Part shown: positions 1 to 6,310 of the stretch, one piece after another
How the letters are laid out: each line of letters begins with the position of its first letter
How positions within the stretch are numbered: the stretch's first letter is position 1
Origin: a virus
Taxonomy: Duplodnaviria > Heunggongvirae > Uroviricota > Caudoviricetes
DNA length: 6,310 nucleotides
Strand: one strand, 5' to 3'
Virus record (IMG/VR): IMGVR_UViG_2660238309_000007
Coordinates: 1 to 6,310 of that record
Program-made: the position numbers and the translations under genes
Notes under the pieces: generated by a model
Database searches by the model: none
What the model saw: the letters and a program-made list of their open reading frames with translations, nothing else
What the model was told of the DNA's origin: nothing

Positions 1-61
1 TGTTGTTCTGAGGTGAGCATATCACCTCTGTTCAGGTGGCCAAATTCAGTGTGCCACTTCA
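1..61. repeat. Left terminal inverted repeat, 61 bp, perfect reverse complement of 6249-6309
   Basis: Direct comparison: the reverse complement of 6249-6309 equals 1-61 base for base; the match breaks at 62 vs 6248. Internal hairpins: gaggtga (10-16) pairs with tcacctc (22-28) around a 5-nt loop, and gtggc (36-40) pairs with gccac (53-57). Confidence 0.9.
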
Positions 62-81
62 GACATTCTGAGGTGACAGCG

Positions 82-960
82 ATGATGACGTTTAACCTGC
101 GTGAACAACAAAAAAGACTACAGGCGCGAATGGATGAGTTACGGGCAGAGATTGCATTTGCTCAGAAGGGCGAAAAGCCATGGCCTTATCGTTCCTGCCT
201 GATGCGTGAAGGTCGCGGATATTGCGAAAAACATGGCGAATATCACACGCATATACTGGTGTGGAGCGATCGTAATGGCGAGGACAGAGAAGAAATTTCA
301 TGCTGCCCTGACTGCTTAATCGCTGAGGCCAACGATTTGACCATGGAGCTGTCGTCCATCAAGGCGGAAGAGCTGACTGATAACGCCGGAATTGCCCTGC
401 GTTTTCGGGACTGCGAGTTTGATAATTATCTGGAGGTTAATCCTGGCGCAGCCAGAAATCTTGCGGCCTGTCGCCGCTATGCGGAGAACTGGCCAGATAT
501 GCTGGAGAACGGTACCAGTCTTGTTATGACCGGCAGTTGTGGTACCGGAAAAAATCATCTGGCTGTGGCTATGGCAAAACACATCATCCGTAACTATCTG
601 GCCAGTGTGGAGATCACCGACGTGATGCGCCTTACCCGTGCTGTGAAAAATTGCTGGCGGAATGACAGCGAAAAAACAGCGGATGAAGTTATTGAGCGTT
701 ATGCGTCAATGGATTTGCTGATCATCGACGAAGTTGGCGTTCAGTTTGGCAGCGCGGCTGAAATGGCTATTTTGCAGGAAATTATCAACGCCAGGTACGA
801 AAGTATCTTGCCCACCATTCTGATCAGTAACCTCTCACCGGAAGAGTTGTGGGCGTTCATCAGTCCCCGAATTGCCGACAGGATCACAGACGGGGGACGC
901 AACTGGTTGTCGTTTAACTGGCCCAGTTACCGTTCTCGTATCAGAGGTGTGGCTGCATGA
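82..960 (+). CDS. DnaC/IstB-like AAA+ helicase loader (phage replication protein)
   Basis: Walker A GSCGTGKNHLAVAMA and Walker B LLIIDEVG in the translation; N-terminal Cys/His cluster (C-x7-C ... CCPDC). Start placed at ATG 82 (GAGGTG Shine-Dalgarno at 70-75) rather than the GTG at 13 of the ORF track. Stop overlaps the next start (ATGA at 957-960). Confidence 0.8.
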   Translation: MMTFNLREQQKRLQARMDELRAEIAFAQKGEKPWPYRSCLMREGRGYCEKHGEYHTHILVWSDRNGEDREEISCCPDCLIAEANDLTMELSSIKAEELTDNAGIALRFRDCEFDNYLEVNPGAARNLAACRRYAENWPDMLENGTSLVMTGSCGTGKNHLAVAMAKHIIRNYLASVEITDVMRLTRAVKNCWRNDSEKTADEVIERYASMDLLIIDEVGVQFGSAAEMAILQEIINARYESILPTILISNLSPEELWAFISPRIADRITDGGRNWLSFNWPSYRSRIRGVAA

Positions 961-2348
961 CAACTCCAGTATGGCGTAACGATGACCTTGAAGGCGCTGT
1001 CATCGGCGCGTTCTTTCTGCGCGGAGCAGATCCTGAAGTGATGGATATTCTGGCCACACTGCCAGCGGACGTTTTTTCTGTACGAGCGTATCAGGATATC
1101 TATACAGGCATCTGCAGACAGGCCCGTGTTTCAGGAGTGATTGACCCCGTGCTGTTGTGTAATGAGATGCCGGAACTTGCCCCGGTGATTACTGATACCG
1201 GGCGTAAAACCTGGGTGAAGTCTTCACTGGAGCACTATGTTGCAGCGTTGCGGCGCAATGCCGCACTGCGCGATGCAGAAAAAACACTGAATGAGGCGCT
1301 GCAGAAATTACGTGATGCGCATACCTGTGAAGCAGCTGAAGATGCCCTGAAGGATGCGCAGAACATGATGGTCACACTGTCGACAGGAAAGGGCGTCATT
1401 CAGCCGGTACATATTGATGATGTGCTTCCGGAAGTGGTTGAGCGTGTTGAATGCCGGAATCAGGGGCTGGAGAAATCCAGGACGTTGATGACCGGTATTG
1501 ATGAACTGGACGCAAAAACAGGCGGTATGGAGCCCGGAGACCTGGTATTCATTGCCGCCCGTCCTTCGATGGGGAAAACCGAACTTGCGCTGGACATCAT
1601 CGACAAGGTGACTGAGCAGGGGCATGGTGTGCTTCTGTTCACCATGGAGATGGCGAACATCCAGATTGGTGAACGTATGGTGTCTGCGGCTGGAGGGATG
1701 CCAGTATCACGCCTGAAATCTGTGGCTCACTTTGAAGATGAAGACTGGACGCGTTTCTCACAAGGGGTGGGGCGGATGACCGGGCGCAATATCTGGATGG
1801 TGGACCAGGCGAACCTGGCCATTGATGAGATATGCGCAACAACGAAACACCACCTGATTAAATATCCGGAAACGGCGCTGGTGGTGGTTGATTATCTCGG
1901 GCTGATAAAAACCCGAACCACGGGGCGTCATGACCTTGCCGTGGGTGAAATCTCAAAGGGGCTTAAAGGCCTGGCAAAATCCGGTGGTTTTCCGTTGATT
2001 GCGCTGAGCCAGCTCTCCCGCGGTGTGGAGTCCAGACCCAATAAACGTCCCATGAACTCAGACCTGAAAAATTCCGGAGAAATAGAGGCGGATGCAGACA
2101 TCATTCTGATGCTTTACAGGGATGAAGTGTACAACCCGGATACGCAGGCCAGGGGCATCGCAGAAATCAATATCACGAAACAACGTAACGGTTCTCTGGG
2201 AACGATTTACCGGCGTTTTTATAACGGACATTTTCTGCCTGTGGACCAGGAAAGTGCACGGGTGCTTTCCACTCCCATGAAGCCCGGCAATCCGCGCAGA
2301 TACAGTAATAAACGAACTGACAGCAGTAAGATGGAGCGTTTCTTTTGA
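957..2348 (+). CDS. DnaB-family replicative helicase
   Basis: N-terminal DnaB-like domain pattern (LEGAVIGAFFL ... YQDIYTGI), Walker A ARPSMGKTELALDI, Walker B LVVVDYLGLI, motif IALSQLSR and late RecA-fold motifs. GAGGTG Shine-Dalgarno at 944-949. ATGA overlap with the upstream loader implies translational coupling. Confidence 0.88.
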   Translation: MTTPVWRNDDLEGAVIGAFFLRGADPEVMDILATLPADVFSVRAYQDIYTGICRQARVSGVIDPVLLCNEMPELAPVITDTGRKTWVKSSLEHYVAALRRNAALRDAEKTLNEALQKLRDAHTCEAAEDALKDAQNMMVTLSTGKGVIQPVHIDDVLPEVVERVECRNQGLEKSRTLMTGIDELDAKTGGMEPGDLVFIAARPSMGKTELALDIIDKVTEQGHGVLLFTMEMANIQIGERMVSAAGGMPVSRLKSVAHFEDEDWTRFSQGVGRMTGRNIWMVDQANLAIDEICATTKHHLIKYPETALVVVDYLGLIKTRTTGRHDLAVGEISKGLKGLAKSGGFPLIALSQLSRGVESRPNKRPMNSDLKNSGEIEADADIILMLYRDEVYNPDTQARGIAEINITKQRNGSLGTIYRRFYNGHFLPVDQESARVLSTPMKPGNPRRYSNKRTDSSKMERFF

Positions 2349-2602
2349 ACAACCAGACAATGACTTTTACCCCTGAACAATTGCGTAAACACGCGCAGGA
2401 AATGCTGCGTCATGCTGAACAACTCGAAAAAACGGGCATAACAAAAGATGCTATCCGTAAAGATATGGTACCCGCGCTTCGGGAACTGATGCAGGCGAAG
2501 CATCGCGCACAGAAAGCAGTAGATGAGCTGGTGGACTGTGTGGCAGAGCTGGAAACCAGAGTCGGAAAGTTTGAAAAACTGGTGCAGGAGGCGCTGCGCT
2601 GA
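2345..2602 (+). CDS. Small hypothetical protein, predicted coiled-coil (about 80-85 aa)
   Basis: ORF in the track; start ambiguous between TTG 2345 (GGAG about 10 nt upstream, overlaps helicase stop) and ATG 2360. No recognisable catalytic motif. Position matches the small-gene nin/ren zone of lambdoid phages. Confidence 0.5.
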   Translation: MNNQTMTFTPEQLRKHAQEMLRHAEQLEKTGITKDAIRKDMVPALRELMQAKHRAQKAVDELVDCVAELETRVGKFEKLVQEALR

Positions 2603-2697
2603 TGCGCCATGAGTTTGTTTTGCCCTGGCTTGTGCGCGATCATTATGTCCCTGGTGGAAAGCCCGGGATAAAAATCACCGAACCGGAGAGTATTTGA
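2602..2697 (+). CDS. 31-aa micro-ORF, translationally coupled on both sides (hypothetical)
   Basis: ATG at 2602 overlaps the stop of the upstream ORF (TGATG) and its own TGA at 2695-2697 overlaps the ATG of the NinH-like gene (TGATG). Translation MRHEFVLPWLVRDHYVPGGKPGIKITEPESI. Not in the ORF track (too short). Confidence 0.3.
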   Translation: MRHEFVLPWLVRDHYVPGGKPGIKITEPESI

Positions 2698-2897
2698 TGA
2701 GCGTCAAAATTCAAACGATACCGGAACTGCTTATCCAGACACGAGGTAATATGACCGAAGTTTCACGAATGCTGAACTGTAATCGCGCCACGGTAAGAAA
2801 ATATGCTGAAGATAAAGAGGGCAAAGGGCACGCCATTGTTGATGGTGTTCTGATTGTTCATCGTGGATGGGACAGGGGTAAAGACAGTGATGCGTGA
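2697..2897 (+). CDS. ninH: NinH-like small DNA-binding protein with Fis-type helix-turn-helix
   Basis: 66 aa; [22 protein letters not shown] matches the Fis/NtrC-type HTH signature (TRGN-x-T ... R-x-T-hydrophobic-RK); size and position immediately upstream of Q match lambdoid NinH. GGAG at 2684-2687 upstream of ATG 2697. Recalled family resemblance, not searched. Confidence 0.75.
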
Positions 2898-3270
2898 TAT
2901 TCAGCAGGTTCTTGAGCGCTGGGGCGCGTGGGTGGCTAATAATCATGAGGATGTGACCTGGTCGTCCATTGCTGCCGGTTTTAAGGGATTAATCCCTTCA
3001 AAAGTAAAATCCCGCCCGCAATGCTGTGACGATGACGCGATGGTTATATGTGGGTGTATGGCCCGCCTTAACCGGAACAACAACGATCTACATGACTTGC
3101 TGGTTGACTACTACGTGTTTGGGATGACATTCATGACGCTGGCGCGGAAGCATGGATGCTCAGATGGTTATATAGGAAAGAAGCTACAAAAAGCCGAGGG
3201 GGTGGTGGAAGGAATGTTGATGATGTTGGGTGTCCGGTTAGAAATGGACAAATATATTGAACATCCCTGA
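2890..3270 (+). CDS. Q-type late antiterminator (phage 82 / QuuD-like family)
   Basis: 126 aa from ATG 2890 (8-nt overlap with the NinH-like stop). Sequence [33 protein letters not shown] ... [16 protein letters not shown] resembles, from memory, the small Q antiterminators of cryptic lambdoid prophages. Followed by a short intergenic region and an intrinsic terminator as expected for a pR'/tR' cassette. Confidence 0.75.
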
Positions 3271-3356
3271 TGGTAAGGGGCGACTTTCTAGAAAATATTT
3301 TACGTACGTAAAAAACGGGATATTCTGTTAAGAGTGGTTGCTTCGCCACACAGCTT
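3271..3356 (+). promoter_or_regulatory. Expected location of late promoter (pR'-like) and Q-utilisation site
   Basis: Inferred from position between the Q stop and the terminator; AT-rich stretch with weak hexamers (ttttac 3298-3303, 17-bp spacer, tattct 3321-3326). No strong consensus match. Confidence 0.3.
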
Positions 3357-3382
3357 AAACCCGCCTCCGGGCGGGTTTTTTA
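3357..3382 (+). terminator. Rho-independent terminator (tR'-like)
   Basis: Stem cccgcc (3360-3365), loop tccg, stem ggcggg (3370-3375), then T-tract tttttt (3376-3381); an upstream aaa can pair with the T-tract. Confidence 0.75.
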
Positions 3383-3431
3383 TGCCTGAAAAACGGTACA
3401 GGACGTTAAACACGCTGGTGGTCAGATGAGT

Positions 3432-3460
3432 TTGCAGATGTGATGACATATGGTTATTAT
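3432..3460 (+). promoter_or_regulatory. Candidate sigma70 promoter for the tRNA array
   Basis: ttgcag (3432-3437), 17-bp spacer, tattat (3455-3460), about 10 nt upstream of the first tRNA. Moderate hexamer quality only. Confidence 0.35.
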
Positions 3461-3469
3461 TCTGCCTCC

Positions 3470-3546
3470 GGCCCTTTAGCTCAGTTGGTCAGAGCGAGCG
3501 ACTCATAATCGCCAGGTCGCTGGTTCAAGTCCAGCAAGGGCCACCA
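3470..3546 (+). tRNA. tRNA-Ile2 (anticodon CAU, presumably lysidine-modified, reads AUA)
   Basis: Cloverleaf read by hand: acceptor ggccctt/aagggcc, D-arm gctc...gagc, anticodon loop ctCATaa (CAT at 3504-3506), T-loop ttcaagt, discriminator a, encoded CCA. C4 and C5 in the acceptor stem and close similarity to enterobacterial ileX-type tRNA favour Ile2 over Met. Confidence 0.8.
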
Positions 3547-3547
3547 A

Positions 3548-3624
3548 CCACCACTAGCTCATCCGGATAGAGCATCAACCTTCTAAGTTGACGGTGCGAG
3601 GTTCGAGTCCTCGGTGGTGGGCCA
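3548..3624 (+). tRNA. tRNA-Arg (anticodon UCU, reads AGA/AGG)
   Basis: Acceptor ccaccac/gtggtgg (7 perfect pairs), D-arm gctc/gagc, anticodon stem tcaac/gttga with loop ctTCTaa (TCT at 3582-3584), T-arm cgagg-ttcgagt-cctcg, encoded CCA. Confidence 0.85.
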
Positions 3625-3626
3625 GC

Positions 3627-3702
<76 letters not shown>

Positions 3703-3705
3703 TAT

Positions 3706-3780
<75 letters not shown>

Positions 3781-3894
3781 TGACCTTTCTTAAAGTACTC
3801 CAACCTACTGAATCCTAAGGGATACGGCTTTAAGCCTCCTTGCAGAGTTACTTACTGTAACCCACTGTGTAACCCTCTCAGGGCATGCAGACAT

Positions 3895-5499
3895 ATGATT
3901 CAGCTATCCAGTAGTCACAAACTTCCAGCAGTCTACTATCTCTACCAGCGTAACGGCGTCTACTACTTCCGTCTTAGGGTCAGACAATCAAACAATGATA
4001 GAATGACCTCAATATCATTACGGACCAAGGATAGACGCACCGCTATGGCTTACTCAAGGCACATAAAGGCAGCACTCAAGGCAATACACGCAGACAGACC
4101 CAACGCTACCTATGAGGAAATGAGGGAACACCTTAAGGACATCGCTGAGTGTGAACTGTCTATGGGCCGTTCAGATCTCTTTGAGCCTGACATGAGGGAT
4201 ATCTACCGGGACCAATACGGAGAACTTGGTGAGAGCCTTACCGATGCTCTGGCTAGTGAGCCGCTAAGCATTGACCAGCATCGTTACATCAATGAGGCCC
4301 TGAAGGTGCTAAAAGCCTGTATGAGGCGTATCGAAGCGGGAGACAGTCAGCCTCTGATAGATTACGTCGATCTTTTTAATGATATTGATAGGCAAGATAA
4401 CCAAGCAGACTCTGTGTCCCTATCTGTTAATGCTCCAGAAGTAAAACCAGAAGTTACGCCTAGCATTACCATAGCGAGCCTCTTTGAACAATACGAAGCG
4501 GAGAACTATCAGAACTGGAAGCCTGCAACCTTAAGGGAAAACAAGGCGTCACACGCTGCGTTAATCGAAATATTCGACCATCTGGGTCTCAATGCAGACG
4601 CTAACAGGGCTGACATGCTTAGGGTCCGTGATGTGCTCCAGCAGTTACCTAGGAACCGTAAGCAGCGCTTCAAGGATGTCCCACTTGCTGACCTGTTGAG
4701 CCGTGAAGATAAGACAGATTGTCTGGATGTCGTTACCATCAACAACAAGTATCTTATTAAGATGGCTGCTGTCTTTAGGTGGGCTGTGCGCAATGACTTG
4801 ATTAAAAAGAACATGACTGAGGGTCTGGAGCTTAAAGTCCCTCAGCGTAAAGCCTCAGGGGCCCGTAACGCCTTCTCTACGGAGCAGGTGGGGCAACTAC
4901 TGGTCGCAGCTAAGGCATACTCTCAGAAGACCTCTGGTAAGCCGTATCATTATTATGTTACCGCCTTGGCTGCTATCACTGGGGCGAGACTCAATGAAAT
5001 AGCCCAACTACAGGTCAAAGACGTCAGGACCACTGAGGCGGGAACCGTTTATATTCATATCAATGAAGACGATAGTAGTCTACCCGGTAAGAGCATCAAG
5101 AACGCTCATAGTGACCGCTGTGTGCCTCTGGTCGATGGGGCCTATGGTTTTATATTGGCTGACTTTATGGCGCTTGTAGAGACCCGTAGAGGCGCTGACG
5201 GTGATGACGCTATGGTGTTCGATGGTCTGCGTCTCATGAAGAACGGTTACGGTGAGCAGGTGAGTAAATGGTTTAATCGGACGTTGTTGCCTAAAGTCCT
5301 CGTAGACCGTAGCGGCTTAGCGTTTCACTCGTTTAGACATACAGTTGCGGCCCAGTTAAAACAACATGGGGTCGAGTTGGCGTATGCACAGGCGATCATG
5401 GGGCATAGTTCAGGGTCTATTACGTACGACCGTTATGCTAAAGAGGTCGAGGTTGATAGGCTGGTCAATGTGATGGCTGATGTTTATAAGGAGACCTAG
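3895..5499 (+). CDS. Tyrosine recombinase / phage-type integrase (534 aa)
   Basis: C-terminal catalytic signature in the translation: ITGARLNEI (Arg), LAFHSFRHTVA (H-x-x-R), AIMGHSSG (His), SITYDRY (catalytic Tyr). N-terminal YYLYQRNGVYYFRLRV resembles an integrase N-terminal DNA-binding motif. Lies immediately 3' of the tRNA array. No strong Shine-Dalgarno upstream of ATG 3895. Confidence 0.88.
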   Translation: MIQLSSSHKLPAVYYLYQRNGVYYFRLRVRQSNNDRMTSISLRTKDRRTAMAYSRHIKAALKAIHADRPNATYEEMREHLKDIAECELSMGRSDLFEPDMRDIYRDQYGELGESLTDALASEPLSIDQHRYINEALKVLKACMRRIEAGDSQPLIDYVDLFNDIDRQDNQADSVSLSVNAPEVKPEVTPSITIASLFEQYEAENYQNWKPATLRENKASHAALIEIFDHLGLNADANRADMLRVRDVLQQLPRNRKQRFKDVPLADLLSREDKTDCLDVVTINNKYLIKMAAVFRWAVRNDLIKKNMTEGLELKVPQRKASGARNAFSTEQVGQLLVAAKAYSQKTSGKPYHYYVTALAAITGARLNEIAQLQVKDVRTTEAGTVYIHINEDDSSLPGKSIKNAHSDRCVPLVDGAYGFILADFMALVETRRGADGDDAMVFDGLRLMKNGYGEQVSKWFNRTLLPKVLVDRSGLAFHSFRHTVAAQLKQHGVELAYAQAIMGHSSGSITYDRYAKEVEVDRLVNVMADVYKET

Positions 5500-5587
5500 A
5501 GGAGACCATAGTCTAGGATGACACTTACTACAGACCTGTGTGGTCATGTTTTTGACTCATAGTTTTCTCTACTTGTCAAGGGATAAT

Positions 5588-5610
5588 TAATACGACTCAC
5601 TATAGGGAGA
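5588..5610 (+). promoter_or_regulatory. T7 RNA polymerase promoter, perfect 23-bp class III consensus (copy 1)
   Basis: taatacgactcactatagggaga at 5588-5610, exact match to the T7 consensus -17 to +6; predicted +1 G at 5605; transcription rightward on the + strand. Confidence 0.85.
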
Positions 5611-5708
5611 AGGGACACAAAAAGTTTTCTCTTCTAGGATGACACTTACTACAGACCTGTGCGGTCATGTTTTTGACTCATAGTTTTCTCTGCTTGTCAA
5701 GGGGTAAT

Positions 5709-5731
5709 TAATACGACTCACTATAGGGAGA
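5709..5731 (+). promoter_or_regulatory. T7 RNA polymerase promoter, perfect 23-bp consensus (copy 2)
   Basis: taatacgactcactatagggaga at 5709-5731; same orientation as copy 1. Confidence 0.85.
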
Positions 5732-5828
5732 AGGGACACAAAAAGTTTTCTCTTCTAGGATGACACTTACTACAGACCTGTGTGGTCATGTTTTTGACTC
5801 ATGGTTTTCTCTACTTGTCAAGGATAAT

Positions 5829-5851
5829 TAATACGACTCACTATAGGGAGA
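5829..5851 (+). promoter_or_regulatory. T7 RNA polymerase promoter, perfect 23-bp consensus (copy 3)
   Basis: taatacgactcactatagggaga at 5829-5851; same orientation. Confidence 0.85.
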
Positions 5852-6048
5852 AGGGACACAAAAAGTTTTCTCTTCTAGGACAACTAACCGTAACTTATCG
5901 CATCCTTTCAGGGGCGGGATGACCAATTACAGACACCAAGCGTTCTACTTAAAGTGAATGCTTCCTGTGTGCTCTGGGTCAGTCGATAAGTGAATAGCAA
6001 TAAGACACAATCATCTTAATTATGGTCTCTAGTCCCTACAGGGGCTTA

Positions 6049-6192
6049 ACTTAAAGTTAACTTAAAGACACAATTAAAGATTAACTTATAGTATTACTTA
6101 AAGTTAACTTAAAGACACAATTAGAGATTAACTTTAAGTATTAAATAAAAGATTTAATTAAAGACCAATTAAAGATTAACTCTAAGGGAATA
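6049..6192. repeat. AT-rich short tandem repeat array (TTAAAG / ACTTAAAG motifs; two 47-bp units plus degenerate copies)
   Basis: 6049-6095 (acttaaagttaacttaaagacacaattaaagattaacttatagtatt) and 6096-6142 differ at only 3 positions; 6143-6192 continues with degenerate aattaaag units. No ORF. Lies about 200 bp downstream of the third T7 promoter. Confidence 0.85.
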
Positions 6193-6248
6193 CCTTAAGG
6201 GGTGATGATATTTATAATAATCAATCACCAAACCTATAGGTCTTCTCT

Positions 6249-6309
6249 TGAAGTGGCACACTGAATTTGGCCACCTGAACAGAGGTGATATGCTCACCTC
6301 AGAACAACA
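6249..6309. repeat. Right terminal inverted repeat, 61 bp, perfect reverse complement of 1-61
   Basis: See left copy; perfect over 61 bp, with the same internal hairpins on the opposite strand. Confidence 0.9.
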
Positions 6310-6310
6310 C

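Follow-up and report, generated by a model that had tools for sequence, protein, structure and literature searches.

Insertions of IS911, a member of the IS3 family, produce a 3-bp duplication of their target site. This element is one of the five IS that have expanded in all Shigella species, whose reference chromosomes contain 229-348 IS insertions each and in which rearrangements mediated by IS are common (PMC7373316). Composite transposons such as Tn10 and Tn5 consist of two inverted copies of one IS around a few kb of cargo, while the Hin, Gin and fim switches have inverted repeats around a segment coding for a recombinase. Among small integrative elements, cf-PICIs carry their own HK97-fold capsid gene, PICMI mini-satellites are minimal and uniform in size, and P4 and others are found at tRNA genes. 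Furthermore, plasmids that contain a T7 origin and a concatemer junction can be transduced by T7; Chung and Hinkle reportedly described in 1990 the cis signals that allow plasmid packaging by this phage.

The window, i.e. the whole stretch of 6,310 nucleotides analyzed here (Table 1), carries the same sequence in inverted orientation at both ends. As reported in the initial annotation, positions 1-61 are the exact reverse complement of positions 6249-6309: the repeat search found 61 nt that are 100% complementary, in two arms 6187 nt apart, and a perfect match of this length cannot have arisen by chance. The repeat appears to be 61 nt long because the window begins at base 61 of the left arm; base 6310 (C) adds one further IS911 base, and the right arm thus has 62 nt of IS911 and the left one 61. 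The two hairpins described in each arm are real, DNA folding placing stem-loops at nt 5-26 and 34-52 of the arm (the second with a perfect 7-bp stem) and giving a dG of -10.6 kcal/mol for the arm folded as DNA (z = -2.75 versus shuffles). The 11-mer TTCTGAGGTGA is indeed located at 6-16 and 66-76, and also on the minus strand at 6294-6304, with zero chance occurrences expected from shuffles. However, the proposal that the repeat was born by duplication of the leader of the first gene is refuted, since this 11-mer occurs in every IS911 copy and in an uninterrupted prophage (L022). It is native to IS911 and to the prophage alike, hence no duplication took place.

Table 1. Coordinates of the features found in the window
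Feature	Position	Strand	Evidence or remark
IS911 left end (IRL + 5' leader, nt 61..1), body left of window	1..61	-	100% identical to annotated copies in L001, L002
Replication and antitermination module of phiP27-like lambdoid prophage (S. flexneri locus A)	62..3370	+	99.9% identical to E. coli prophages; 100% to S. flexneri L015, L016, L024
DnaC-like	82-960		Within the module; annotation and Pfam matches on called genes
DnaB	957-2348		Within the module; annotation and Pfam matches on called genes
Hypothetical	2345-2602		Within the module
NinH	2697-2897		Within the module; annotation and Pfam matches on called genes
Q	2890-3270		Within the module; annotation and Pfam matches on called genes
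Terminator	about 3355-3382		
Exact 368-bp repeat common to S. flexneri loci A and B, four tRNA genes	3413..3780	+	ARAGORN, Rfam
tRNA CAT	3470-3546	+	ARAGORN, Rfam
tRNA Arg-TCT	3548-3624	+	ARAGORN, Rfam
tRNA Thr-TGT	3627-3702	+	ARAGORN, Rfam
tRNA Gly-TCC	3706-3780	+	ARAGORN, Rfam; 3' end is the island attL
Truncated tRNA-Gly-integrating island (S. flexneri locus B)	3781..6248	+	100% identical to L005, L007, L014
Tyrosine integrase of the island, 534 aa	3895..5499	+	Pfam Phage_integrase 2e-17; PHROG 1 integrase 2e-44
20-mer CTCTGTGTCCCTATCTGTTA inside the integrase linker	4410..4429	+	Identical to T7 nt 149-168 (terminal-repeat end and concatemer-junction signal)
Three tandem 121-bp units, each with exact T7 consensus promoter TAATACGACTCACTATAGGGAGA	5512..5874 (promoters 5588-5610, 5709-5731, 5829-5851)	+	Repeat and promoter search
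Noncoding block downstream of promoters, conserved across genera, predicted long-range stem	5885..6002	+	88-97% identical in Rouxiella, Morganella, Edaphovirga and Klebsiella islands
AT-rich TTAACTTAAAG-type repeats (GC down to 15%), then small inverted repeat GGTGAT...ATCACC	6040..6232	+	Repeat search
TCT target triplet	6246..6248	+	Duplicated across right IS911 in complete genomes
Second IS911 left end (IRL + 5' leader, nt 1..62), body right of window	6249..6310	+	100% identical to annotated IS911 ends

Both arms share their terminal sequence (TGAAGTGGCACACTGAATTTGGCCACC...) with IS911, with 100% identity over 61-62 nt. The terminal inverted repeat starts with TGAAGTGG, in agreement with the IRL of IS911, and the annotated copies matched by the arms are described in RefSeq as 'IS3-like element IS911 family transposase'. 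The left junction is present with a full IS911 in three S. flexneri loci (L015, L016 and L024) and the right one in ten loci (L005-L011, L013, L014 and L032). Where complete S. flexneri genomes have these junctions, the adjacent element measures about 1250 bp and has HTH_Tnp_1 and rve genes of 389 aa, in agreement with the organization of IS911 (1.25 kb, OrfA/OrfAB with HTH and rve, programmed frameshift); this body lies outside the window, which holds only 61-62 nt per IS, and the bodies are deduced from these other genomes. Moreover, the right copy has the 3-bp duplication of IS911: the empty site in L029 reads ...GGTCTTCTCTAGGGTC... with a single TCT, and the occupied site in L005 and L007 has a TCT on each side of IS911. 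There is no duplication at the left IS911 because its other flank is rearranged DNA. IS911 ends occur at many unrelated places. Compared with IS911 insertions of Shigella and E. coli, the window thus shows the same ends, a target duplication (right copy), multiple copies in Shigella and the breaking of short-read assemblies, the only difference being that the tips alone are in the window.

The arms are almost certainly the first 61 and 62 nt of two IS911 copies that point apart at the ends of a short-read contig, and the block between them is a prophage part plus an island remnant, not one element. As such, the inverted repeats are ordinary. The window would be a contig, most likely from Shigella flexneri, that stopped where the assembler met the multicopy IS911, and the repeat length, about k-1, is consistent with such a stop. 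The longest contig with this exact integrase is shorter than 5 kb in 2125 of the 2232 collection blocks and therefore assemblies fragment at this place. The right IS911 entered the island remnant by ordinary transposition, giving the TCT duplication. Three explanations had been offered for the repeats, and that of an artefact comes closest, in that assembly halted in a multicopy IS and may also have fused the two halves into a chimera; however, the repeat itself is real DNA and results neither from amplification nor from a hairpin artefact.

The position of the repeats exactly at both window ends could also suggest that they are the ITRs of a linear phage or plasmid, or that a fold-back arose as an artefact of amplification or assembly. 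This is extremely improbable, since both junctions lie inside circular chromosomes, where they run on into complete IS911 copies, and each of them was found base for base in independent assemblies. No protein-primed polymerase or telomere resolvase was found among the ORFs of the window. A reading of equally negligible probability is that the repeats are recombination sites of an invertible segment flipped by the tyrosine recombinase encoded between them, as in the Hin, Gin and fim switches. Unlike in these switches, the repeats are transposon ends and not crossover sites of the recombinase, which is a tRNA-targeting integrase: it and its homologues are always beside tRNA-Gly, a direct repeat of 17 bp (att) follows 5.5-6.5 kb downstream, and none of the intact island copies inspected contains IS911. 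Hence, the link that had been drawn between recombinase and repeats does not hold.

The two IS911 copies bracket DNA from two loci. The last base specific to locus A is 3412, and sequence specific to locus B starts at 3781. Positions 1-3780, including the left IS junction, are 100.000% identical to S. flexneri CP182555, CP055138 and CP033510, in which locus A has a full 1.25-kb IS911 with its transposase on the left and holin and lysozyme genes after the tRNAs. Positions 3413-6310, including the right IS junction, are 100% identical to CP058589, CP102209 and CP024981, in which a full IS911 lies to the right in locus B and the tRNAs are preceded by an ORF6N gene and a further IS. In LR213455, CP012735 and CP044155, the two loci are 0.55-0.76 Mb apart and are separate prophage loci (according to published papers, these three sequences and CP033510, CP055138 and CP058589 are S. 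flexneri chromosomes). A search of the window with Rfam detected nothing beyond the four tRNAs. Positions 62-3780 are a piece of a phiP27-like prophage, and 3781-6248 the remnant of a small island at the prophage tRNA-Gly.

The contig, which the window probably covers in full, would be either a misjoin over the 368-bp tRNA cluster or derived from a strain whose two prophages recombined there. The 6.2-kb block may thus be physically real in the source strain, a possibility that we consider rather doubtful; its inverted IS911 copies would then allow inversion by homologous recombination or movement as a composite transposon. Most assemblies cross the tRNA repeat correctly (3168 blocks with Q-gene contigs of 5-10 kb), and loci A and B are oppositely oriented in CP012735, where an inversion would yield exactly this joint. 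In addition, an independent contig (L033) has an A-type prophage, then the tRNAs and then an integrase variant (96.6%), which shows that the island family does use the prophage tRNA-Gly as an att site; the physical arrangement of the window is therefore not implausible, and IS-mediated rearrangements are frequent in Shigella (PMC7373316). However, the hybrid was found in none of the 20 complete-genome S. flexneri loci inspected, no contig of IMG/VR matches a pattern spanning A-specific and B-specific bases, and the block does not recur in 5426 E. coli genomes. Positions 62-6248 were found neither in a second context nor in the opposite orientation. In LR213455 and CP044155, the loci are directly oriented and the joint would require a deletion of 0.69-0.76 Mb. 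Moreover, a duplication proper to the right IS911 and none at the left one argue against insertion as one composite unit. Unlike Tn10 and Tn5, the block has no common target duplication visible in the window and gives no evidence of movement as a unit, the two IS911 copies being in separate loci of complete genomes. What stands of the mobile or invertible segment first envisaged is thus trivial: two inverted IS copies could recombine, but the block does not form a discrete unit that moves or inverts. For the repeats, the sole non-trivial reading left is that the IS911 copies bracket a recombinant segment that really exists, a reading of minor interest.

The block that encodes the integrase is a remnant of a family of islands of about 6 kb integrated at tRNA-Gly. 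Homologues (81-93% identity) are beside glyU in 386 of the 5426 E. coli genomes; about 7% of the complete genomes of E. coli contain the family, as do many other Enterobacterales. Intact copies are found, for example, in E. coli LR-64-1 (NZ_AP027588) and 21AR0133 (NZ_CM132251). At 13 loci, islands of 4.3-7.3 kb are delimited by a repeated 17-bp segment of the tRNA-Gly 3' end; ten of them measure 5.45-6.45 kb, and an IS is present in two of the other three. An integrase and att sites thus bound a small element, as expected for a satellite. Searches with the island proteins (Pfam, PHROGs, PADLOC, NCBIfam, PDB sequence profiles and tblastn against phages) retrieved only integrase, Rha/KilA-N/Ant, DUF6971 and DUF4145. 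No free or circular copy of the island was detected in the contigs examined: those of small size (6.0-6.6 kb) that carry the putative capsid gene are chromosomal fragments with no terminal overlap.

This putative capsid gene is the last gene of intact islands and is absent from the window copy. Modelling of its product gives an HK97-fold protein of the capsid or encapsulin type (pLDDT 68; best Foldseek E-value 4e-9), all top matches being capsids. The 373-aa island protein had no match in sequence searches until its fold was modelled, and T7 gp10A has no profile similarity to it. Genes for a terminase, a portal or size redirection were not recognised in the island family.

The islands also carry signals of T7-group phages. 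The best phage match of the promoter in the window is T7 phiOR (26/26 bases), and the 121-bp unit is present in 1-3 copies in related strains. Across the family, islands carry consensus T7, K11 or other T7-group promoters, the type varying with the host genus: E. coli and Shigella have the T7 type, other hosts K11 and further types. The 20-mer of the integrase linker was found in 616 T7-group phage records, is annotated in K11 as 'terminal repeat / concatemeric junction' and is kept in diverged islands. Apart from the promoter and the junction 20-mer, a comparison of the T7 replication and packaging regions with the island gave only isolated 11-17-mers with non-significant E-values. In the conserved noncoding block, RNAalifold predicts the stem ACTTATC/GATAAGT, with one compensatory change in Klebsiella, and positions 5880-5960 have no match in phage genomes. 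Similarity between the AT-rich repeats and the AT-rich region of the T7 origin and leaders is limited to short motifs.

Judging from sequence, these promoters and the junction 20-mer would tie the element to a specific helper, and the island family is a candidate satellite of T7-like phages. The phage RNA polymerase would fire the promoter array, which would drive the island-encoded HK97-fold capsid protein and may double as an RNA-polymerase-primed origin, while the junction signal in the integrase gene would let the phage maturation machinery process island concatemers. Positions 3781-6248 may thus be a degenerate member of an island family, apparently new to the literature, whose copies of about 6 kb lie at tRNA-Gly in Enterobacterales and parasitise T7-like virulent phages via promoters, capsid and junction signal, a tentative reading to which we give somewhat less than an even chance. 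The island resembles cf-PICIs by its small size, its integration and, in intact copies, its modelled capsid gene, PICMI by its minimal, uniform size, P4 by its location at a tRNA gene, and T7-transduced plasmids by its helper-type cis signals. However, unlike that of PICIs, PICMI and P4, its helper would be a virulent T7-like podovirus; moreover, the window copy is a truncated remnant. The literature searched on T7-linked satellites and chromosomal T7 promoters contained nothing relevant and no description of this island family, and none of the satellite families known there has T7-group RNA polymerase promoters or a T7-group junction signal.

Hence, when perfect inverted repeats end a short contig from an IS-rich genome, known IS should be checked before any mobility or inversion is postulated, and two loci with a few hundred bases in common can end up joined in a single contig. 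What makes this block interesting is the island within it, not the repeats. If the satellite model is true, this would be the first satellite-like element linked to T7-group phages by their own promoters and junction signal, which would bear on the exploitation of strictly virulent phages and on phage therapy with T7-like phages.

The perfect inverted repeats that close the window are real, fully explained and ordinary: each arm is the tip of an IS911 copy at which a contig from an IS-rich Shigella genome breaks off. As the initial annotation had stated, a repeat search of the window finds positions 1-61 to be the exact reverse complement of 6249-6309. Each arm also forms two small hairpins when folded as single-stranded DNA, and the 11-mer TTCTGAGGTGA occurs at 6-16 and 66-76, as well as at 6294-6304, inside the other arm. 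The repeated element spans 62 bases in the right arm, where base 6310 continues the sequence, and 61 in the left one. When 5426 complete E. coli genomes were searched with the window by megablast, both arms matched elements annotated as 'IS3-like element IS911 family transposase', and positions 62-3780 were 99.9% identical to lambdoid prophages. The E. coli loci read identify the arm as the left IS911 end, TGAAGTGGCACACTGAATTTGGCCACCTGAACAGAGGTGATATGCTCACCTCAGAACAACAC, which in the full element is followed by AGGTGCTCCAATG and orfA. The left arm is this tip reversed, placing the IS body to the left of base 1, and the right arm is the tip in forward orientation, with the IS body to the right of base 6310. 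Of the two IS911 copies, which face apart, the window therefore contains no more than the tips. The proposal that the repeats mark the borders of a mobile or invertible segment or the ends of a linear element does not hold.

Five insertion sequences, IS911 among them, are expanded across all Shigella species, and each Shigella reference chromosome carries 229-348 IS insertions, which are known to hamper work with short-read data (PMC7373316). A public assembly collection records the exact integrase protein encoded at 3895-5499 in 2232 blocks. Its longest carrier contig measures 2-5 kb in 1604 of these blocks and less than 2 kb in 521; only 55 blocks have one of 5-10 kb. The integrase-carrying chromosomes (ten among the matches listed) are 4.6-4.7 Mb long and rich in IS elements. 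According to published papers, carriers LR213455, CP012735, CP044155, CP026788 and CP058589 are S. flexneri, as are CP033510 and CP055138 from a second protein look-up. We infer that ends about 61-62 bases into IS911 on both sides are the output of a de Bruijn-graph assembler at a collapsed repeat.

The two IS911 copies have different histories. IS911 duplicates 3 bp of its target. The empty site of the right copy (locus L029) reads GGTCTTCTCTAGGGTC and the occupied site ...tct|IS911|tct..., i.e. a 3-bp duplication; the right copy is a simple transposition into the island. The left copy adjoins GACATTCTGAGG, 20 bp upstream of the start codon of the DnaC-like gene. In complete genomes, its other flank is a gene encoding a Toprim domain, which is not the usual neighbour preceding the DnaC-like gene, and it has no target duplication; therefore, a rearrangement occurred there. 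A composite transposon inserted as one unit is disfavoured, since the right IS has its own duplication and the left one has none and a rearranged flank.

The suggestion that the repeat arose by duplication of the first gene's leader also fails, since the 11-mer is present in every IS911 copy and is native to an uninterrupted prophage (L022). The coincidence is still unlikely: the chance of an 11-mer of the IS tip recurring within 60 bp of the junction is about 0.003 (rough estimate). This IS-tip sequence is repeated 4 bp from the 61/62 junction. Upstream of the DnaC-like gene, some S. flexneri genomes have IS911 at this base with IRL inward, others have it at the same base with IRR inward, and a third variant has it 2 bp away (L015 7172, L019 7172 and L020 7174, against junction 61/62 of the window). 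These opposite orientations and the shifted copy hint that this region may be an insertion hot spot. Two E. coli strains, whose prophages are closely related to window 62-3780, also carry IS911 in opposite orientations at an identical site downstream of the holin gene (L001 7290, L002 7289), with different DNA beyond IS911 in one of them.

The window's two halves belong to different prophages in complete S. flexneri genomes. Positions 1-3780, left IS911 junction included, match locus A (L015, L016, L024) at 100.000% identity; this locus continues beyond the tRNA genes with holin and lysozyme genes. Positions 3413-6310, right IS911 junction included, are 100% identical to locus B (L005, L007, L014), which has an ORF6N gene and another IS in front of it. 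Bases specific to locus A extend through 3412 and those specific to locus B start at 3781. Since the halves lie in separate loci sharing a 368-bp repeat, the window is either a mis-join or a real recombinant. We consider it rather probable that it is a chimeric mis-join across this tRNA repeat, and the bracketed block may not be contiguous in the cell. A genuine recombination between loci A and B at the repeat is somewhat less likely. In CP012735, where an inversion could give the joint, loci A and B have opposite orientations and are separated by 0.55 Mb; moreover, most assemblies cross the tRNA repeat correctly (3168 blocks, with contigs of 5-10 kb carrying the antitermination gene Q). An independent contig, L033, also runs from an A-type prophage through the tRNAs into a 96.6% integrase variant. 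However, the loci are in the same orientation 0.76 Mb apart in LR213455 and 0.69 Mb apart in CP044155, architectures that would need a deletion of about 0.7 Mb, and the hybrid was found in none of the 20 complete-genome loci inspected and in no IMG/VR contig. In L033 (6168-10610, with L034 1-712; IMG genome 2529293240), the island variant lies in the prophage tRNA-Gly(TCC), whose 3' end now has the glyU form (an att-type change); this prophage lacks IS911 and its integrase is interrupted at codon 204 by another IS.

The integrase is unrelated to the terminal repeats. Its homologues adjoin tRNA-Gly (glyU or prophage-borne) in most loci examined, a 17-bp copy of the tRNA 3' end lies 4.3-7.3 kb downstream in loci with both island ends, and no IS911 was found in the intact island copies inspected. 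The island portion, 3781-6248, is far more unusual than the terminal repeats.

Features of the island and of the tRNA stretch that precedes it (window coordinates)
Feature	Position	Description
Stretch common to loci A and B	3413-3780	368 bp, four tRNA genes, identical in both loci
Exact copy of T7 nt 149-168	4410-4429	20-mer inside the integrase linker
Three tandem 121-bp units	5512-5874	After the integrase; a perfect 23-bp T7 consensus promoter, TAATACGACTCACTATAGGGAGA, in each
T7 consensus promoters	5588-5610, 5709-5731, 5829-5851	
Noncoding block	5885-6002	About 120 nt, just 3' of the promoters; 88-97% identical across genera
AT-rich region	6040-6232	GC down to 15%; TTAACTTAAAG-type repeats, then GGTGAT...ATCACC inverted repeat

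The copy number of the 121-bp unit varies from 1 to 3 between near-identical strains. The 23-mer is perfect or almost so even in related E. coli islands that share only about 81-85% identity over the 2.5-kb integrase-plus-noncoding block. Promoter arrays also lie downstream of integrase homologues in L035, L042-L046, L049-L052 and other loci: in other genera of Enterobacterales, other T7-group promoters occupy the same place and strand, and their type varies with the host genus. For instance, a Klebsiella pneumoniae island (L035 12263-12840) carries the K11 consensus twice, the T7 consensus and another type; further variants occur in Citrobacter, Enterobacter, Buttiauxella, Proteus and Kluyvera, the last two sharing AATTAACCCACACTATAGGGAGA.

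In T7, the 20-mer covers the terminal-repeat end plus the concatemer-junction signal. It occurs at the right-hand edge of the terminal repeat in 616 genomes of T7-group phages, and the K11 annotation names it 'concatemeric junction'. It is conserved among diverged islands though the protein linker is variable, and its core CCCTATCTGT is kept in a second integrase clade despite differing neighbouring codons. Furthermore, conservation of the noncoding block exceeds that of the integrase DNA. A long-range stem (ACTTATC/GATAAGT) is predicted in it, with one compensatory change in Klebsiella, and it has no match in phage genomes or Rfam. The AT-rich region resembles in style and short motifs the AT-rich part of the T7 primary origin and T7 leaders, with no significant alignment to these regions.

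Thirteen islands (L003, L004, L025, L026, L035, L038, L041-L045, L051, L052) are delimited by the 17-bp repeat and measure 4.3-7.3 kb, ten of them 5.45-6.45 kb; two of the three outliers contain an IS. This is about 1/6 to 1/7 of a T7-like genome, which suggests that island size is under constraint. The genes, all on one strand, encode the integrase, a variable Rha/KilA-N/Ant-like protein, a protein of about 70 aa, a DUF6971 protein and a protein of 326-402 aa. The last (L003 24545-25666, L035 14629-15837 and homologues), which is not in the window, has no sequence-family match and no detectable sequence relation to T7 gp10A. All matches of its AlphaFold model (pLDDT 68) are to HK97-fold capsid proteins or encapsulins (113 PDB matches at E <= 1e-3), and the protein is thus predicted to be an HK97-fold capsid or encapsulin protein. 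In S. flexneri, only a remnant of the island is left, in which the integrase and promoters are followed by IS911, a 41-codon piece of the Rha gene and finally IS1. Many islands also carry, between the integrase and the promoter array, a DUF4145 protein of about 215 aa with an N-terminal Cys-rich segment (L035 11624-12256, L041-L045; absent from E. coli and Shigella islands), which could be a toxin or defence module.

The literature searched on T7-linked satellites and chromosomal T7 promoters contains no description of this tRNA-Gly island family. Judging from sequence and predicted fold, we see in it a candidate mini-satellite of T7-like phages that encodes a capsid, and the main alternative is a defence island triggered by RNA polymerase. 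The terminal repeats themselves are of low interest; the island inside the block deserves separate follow-up.
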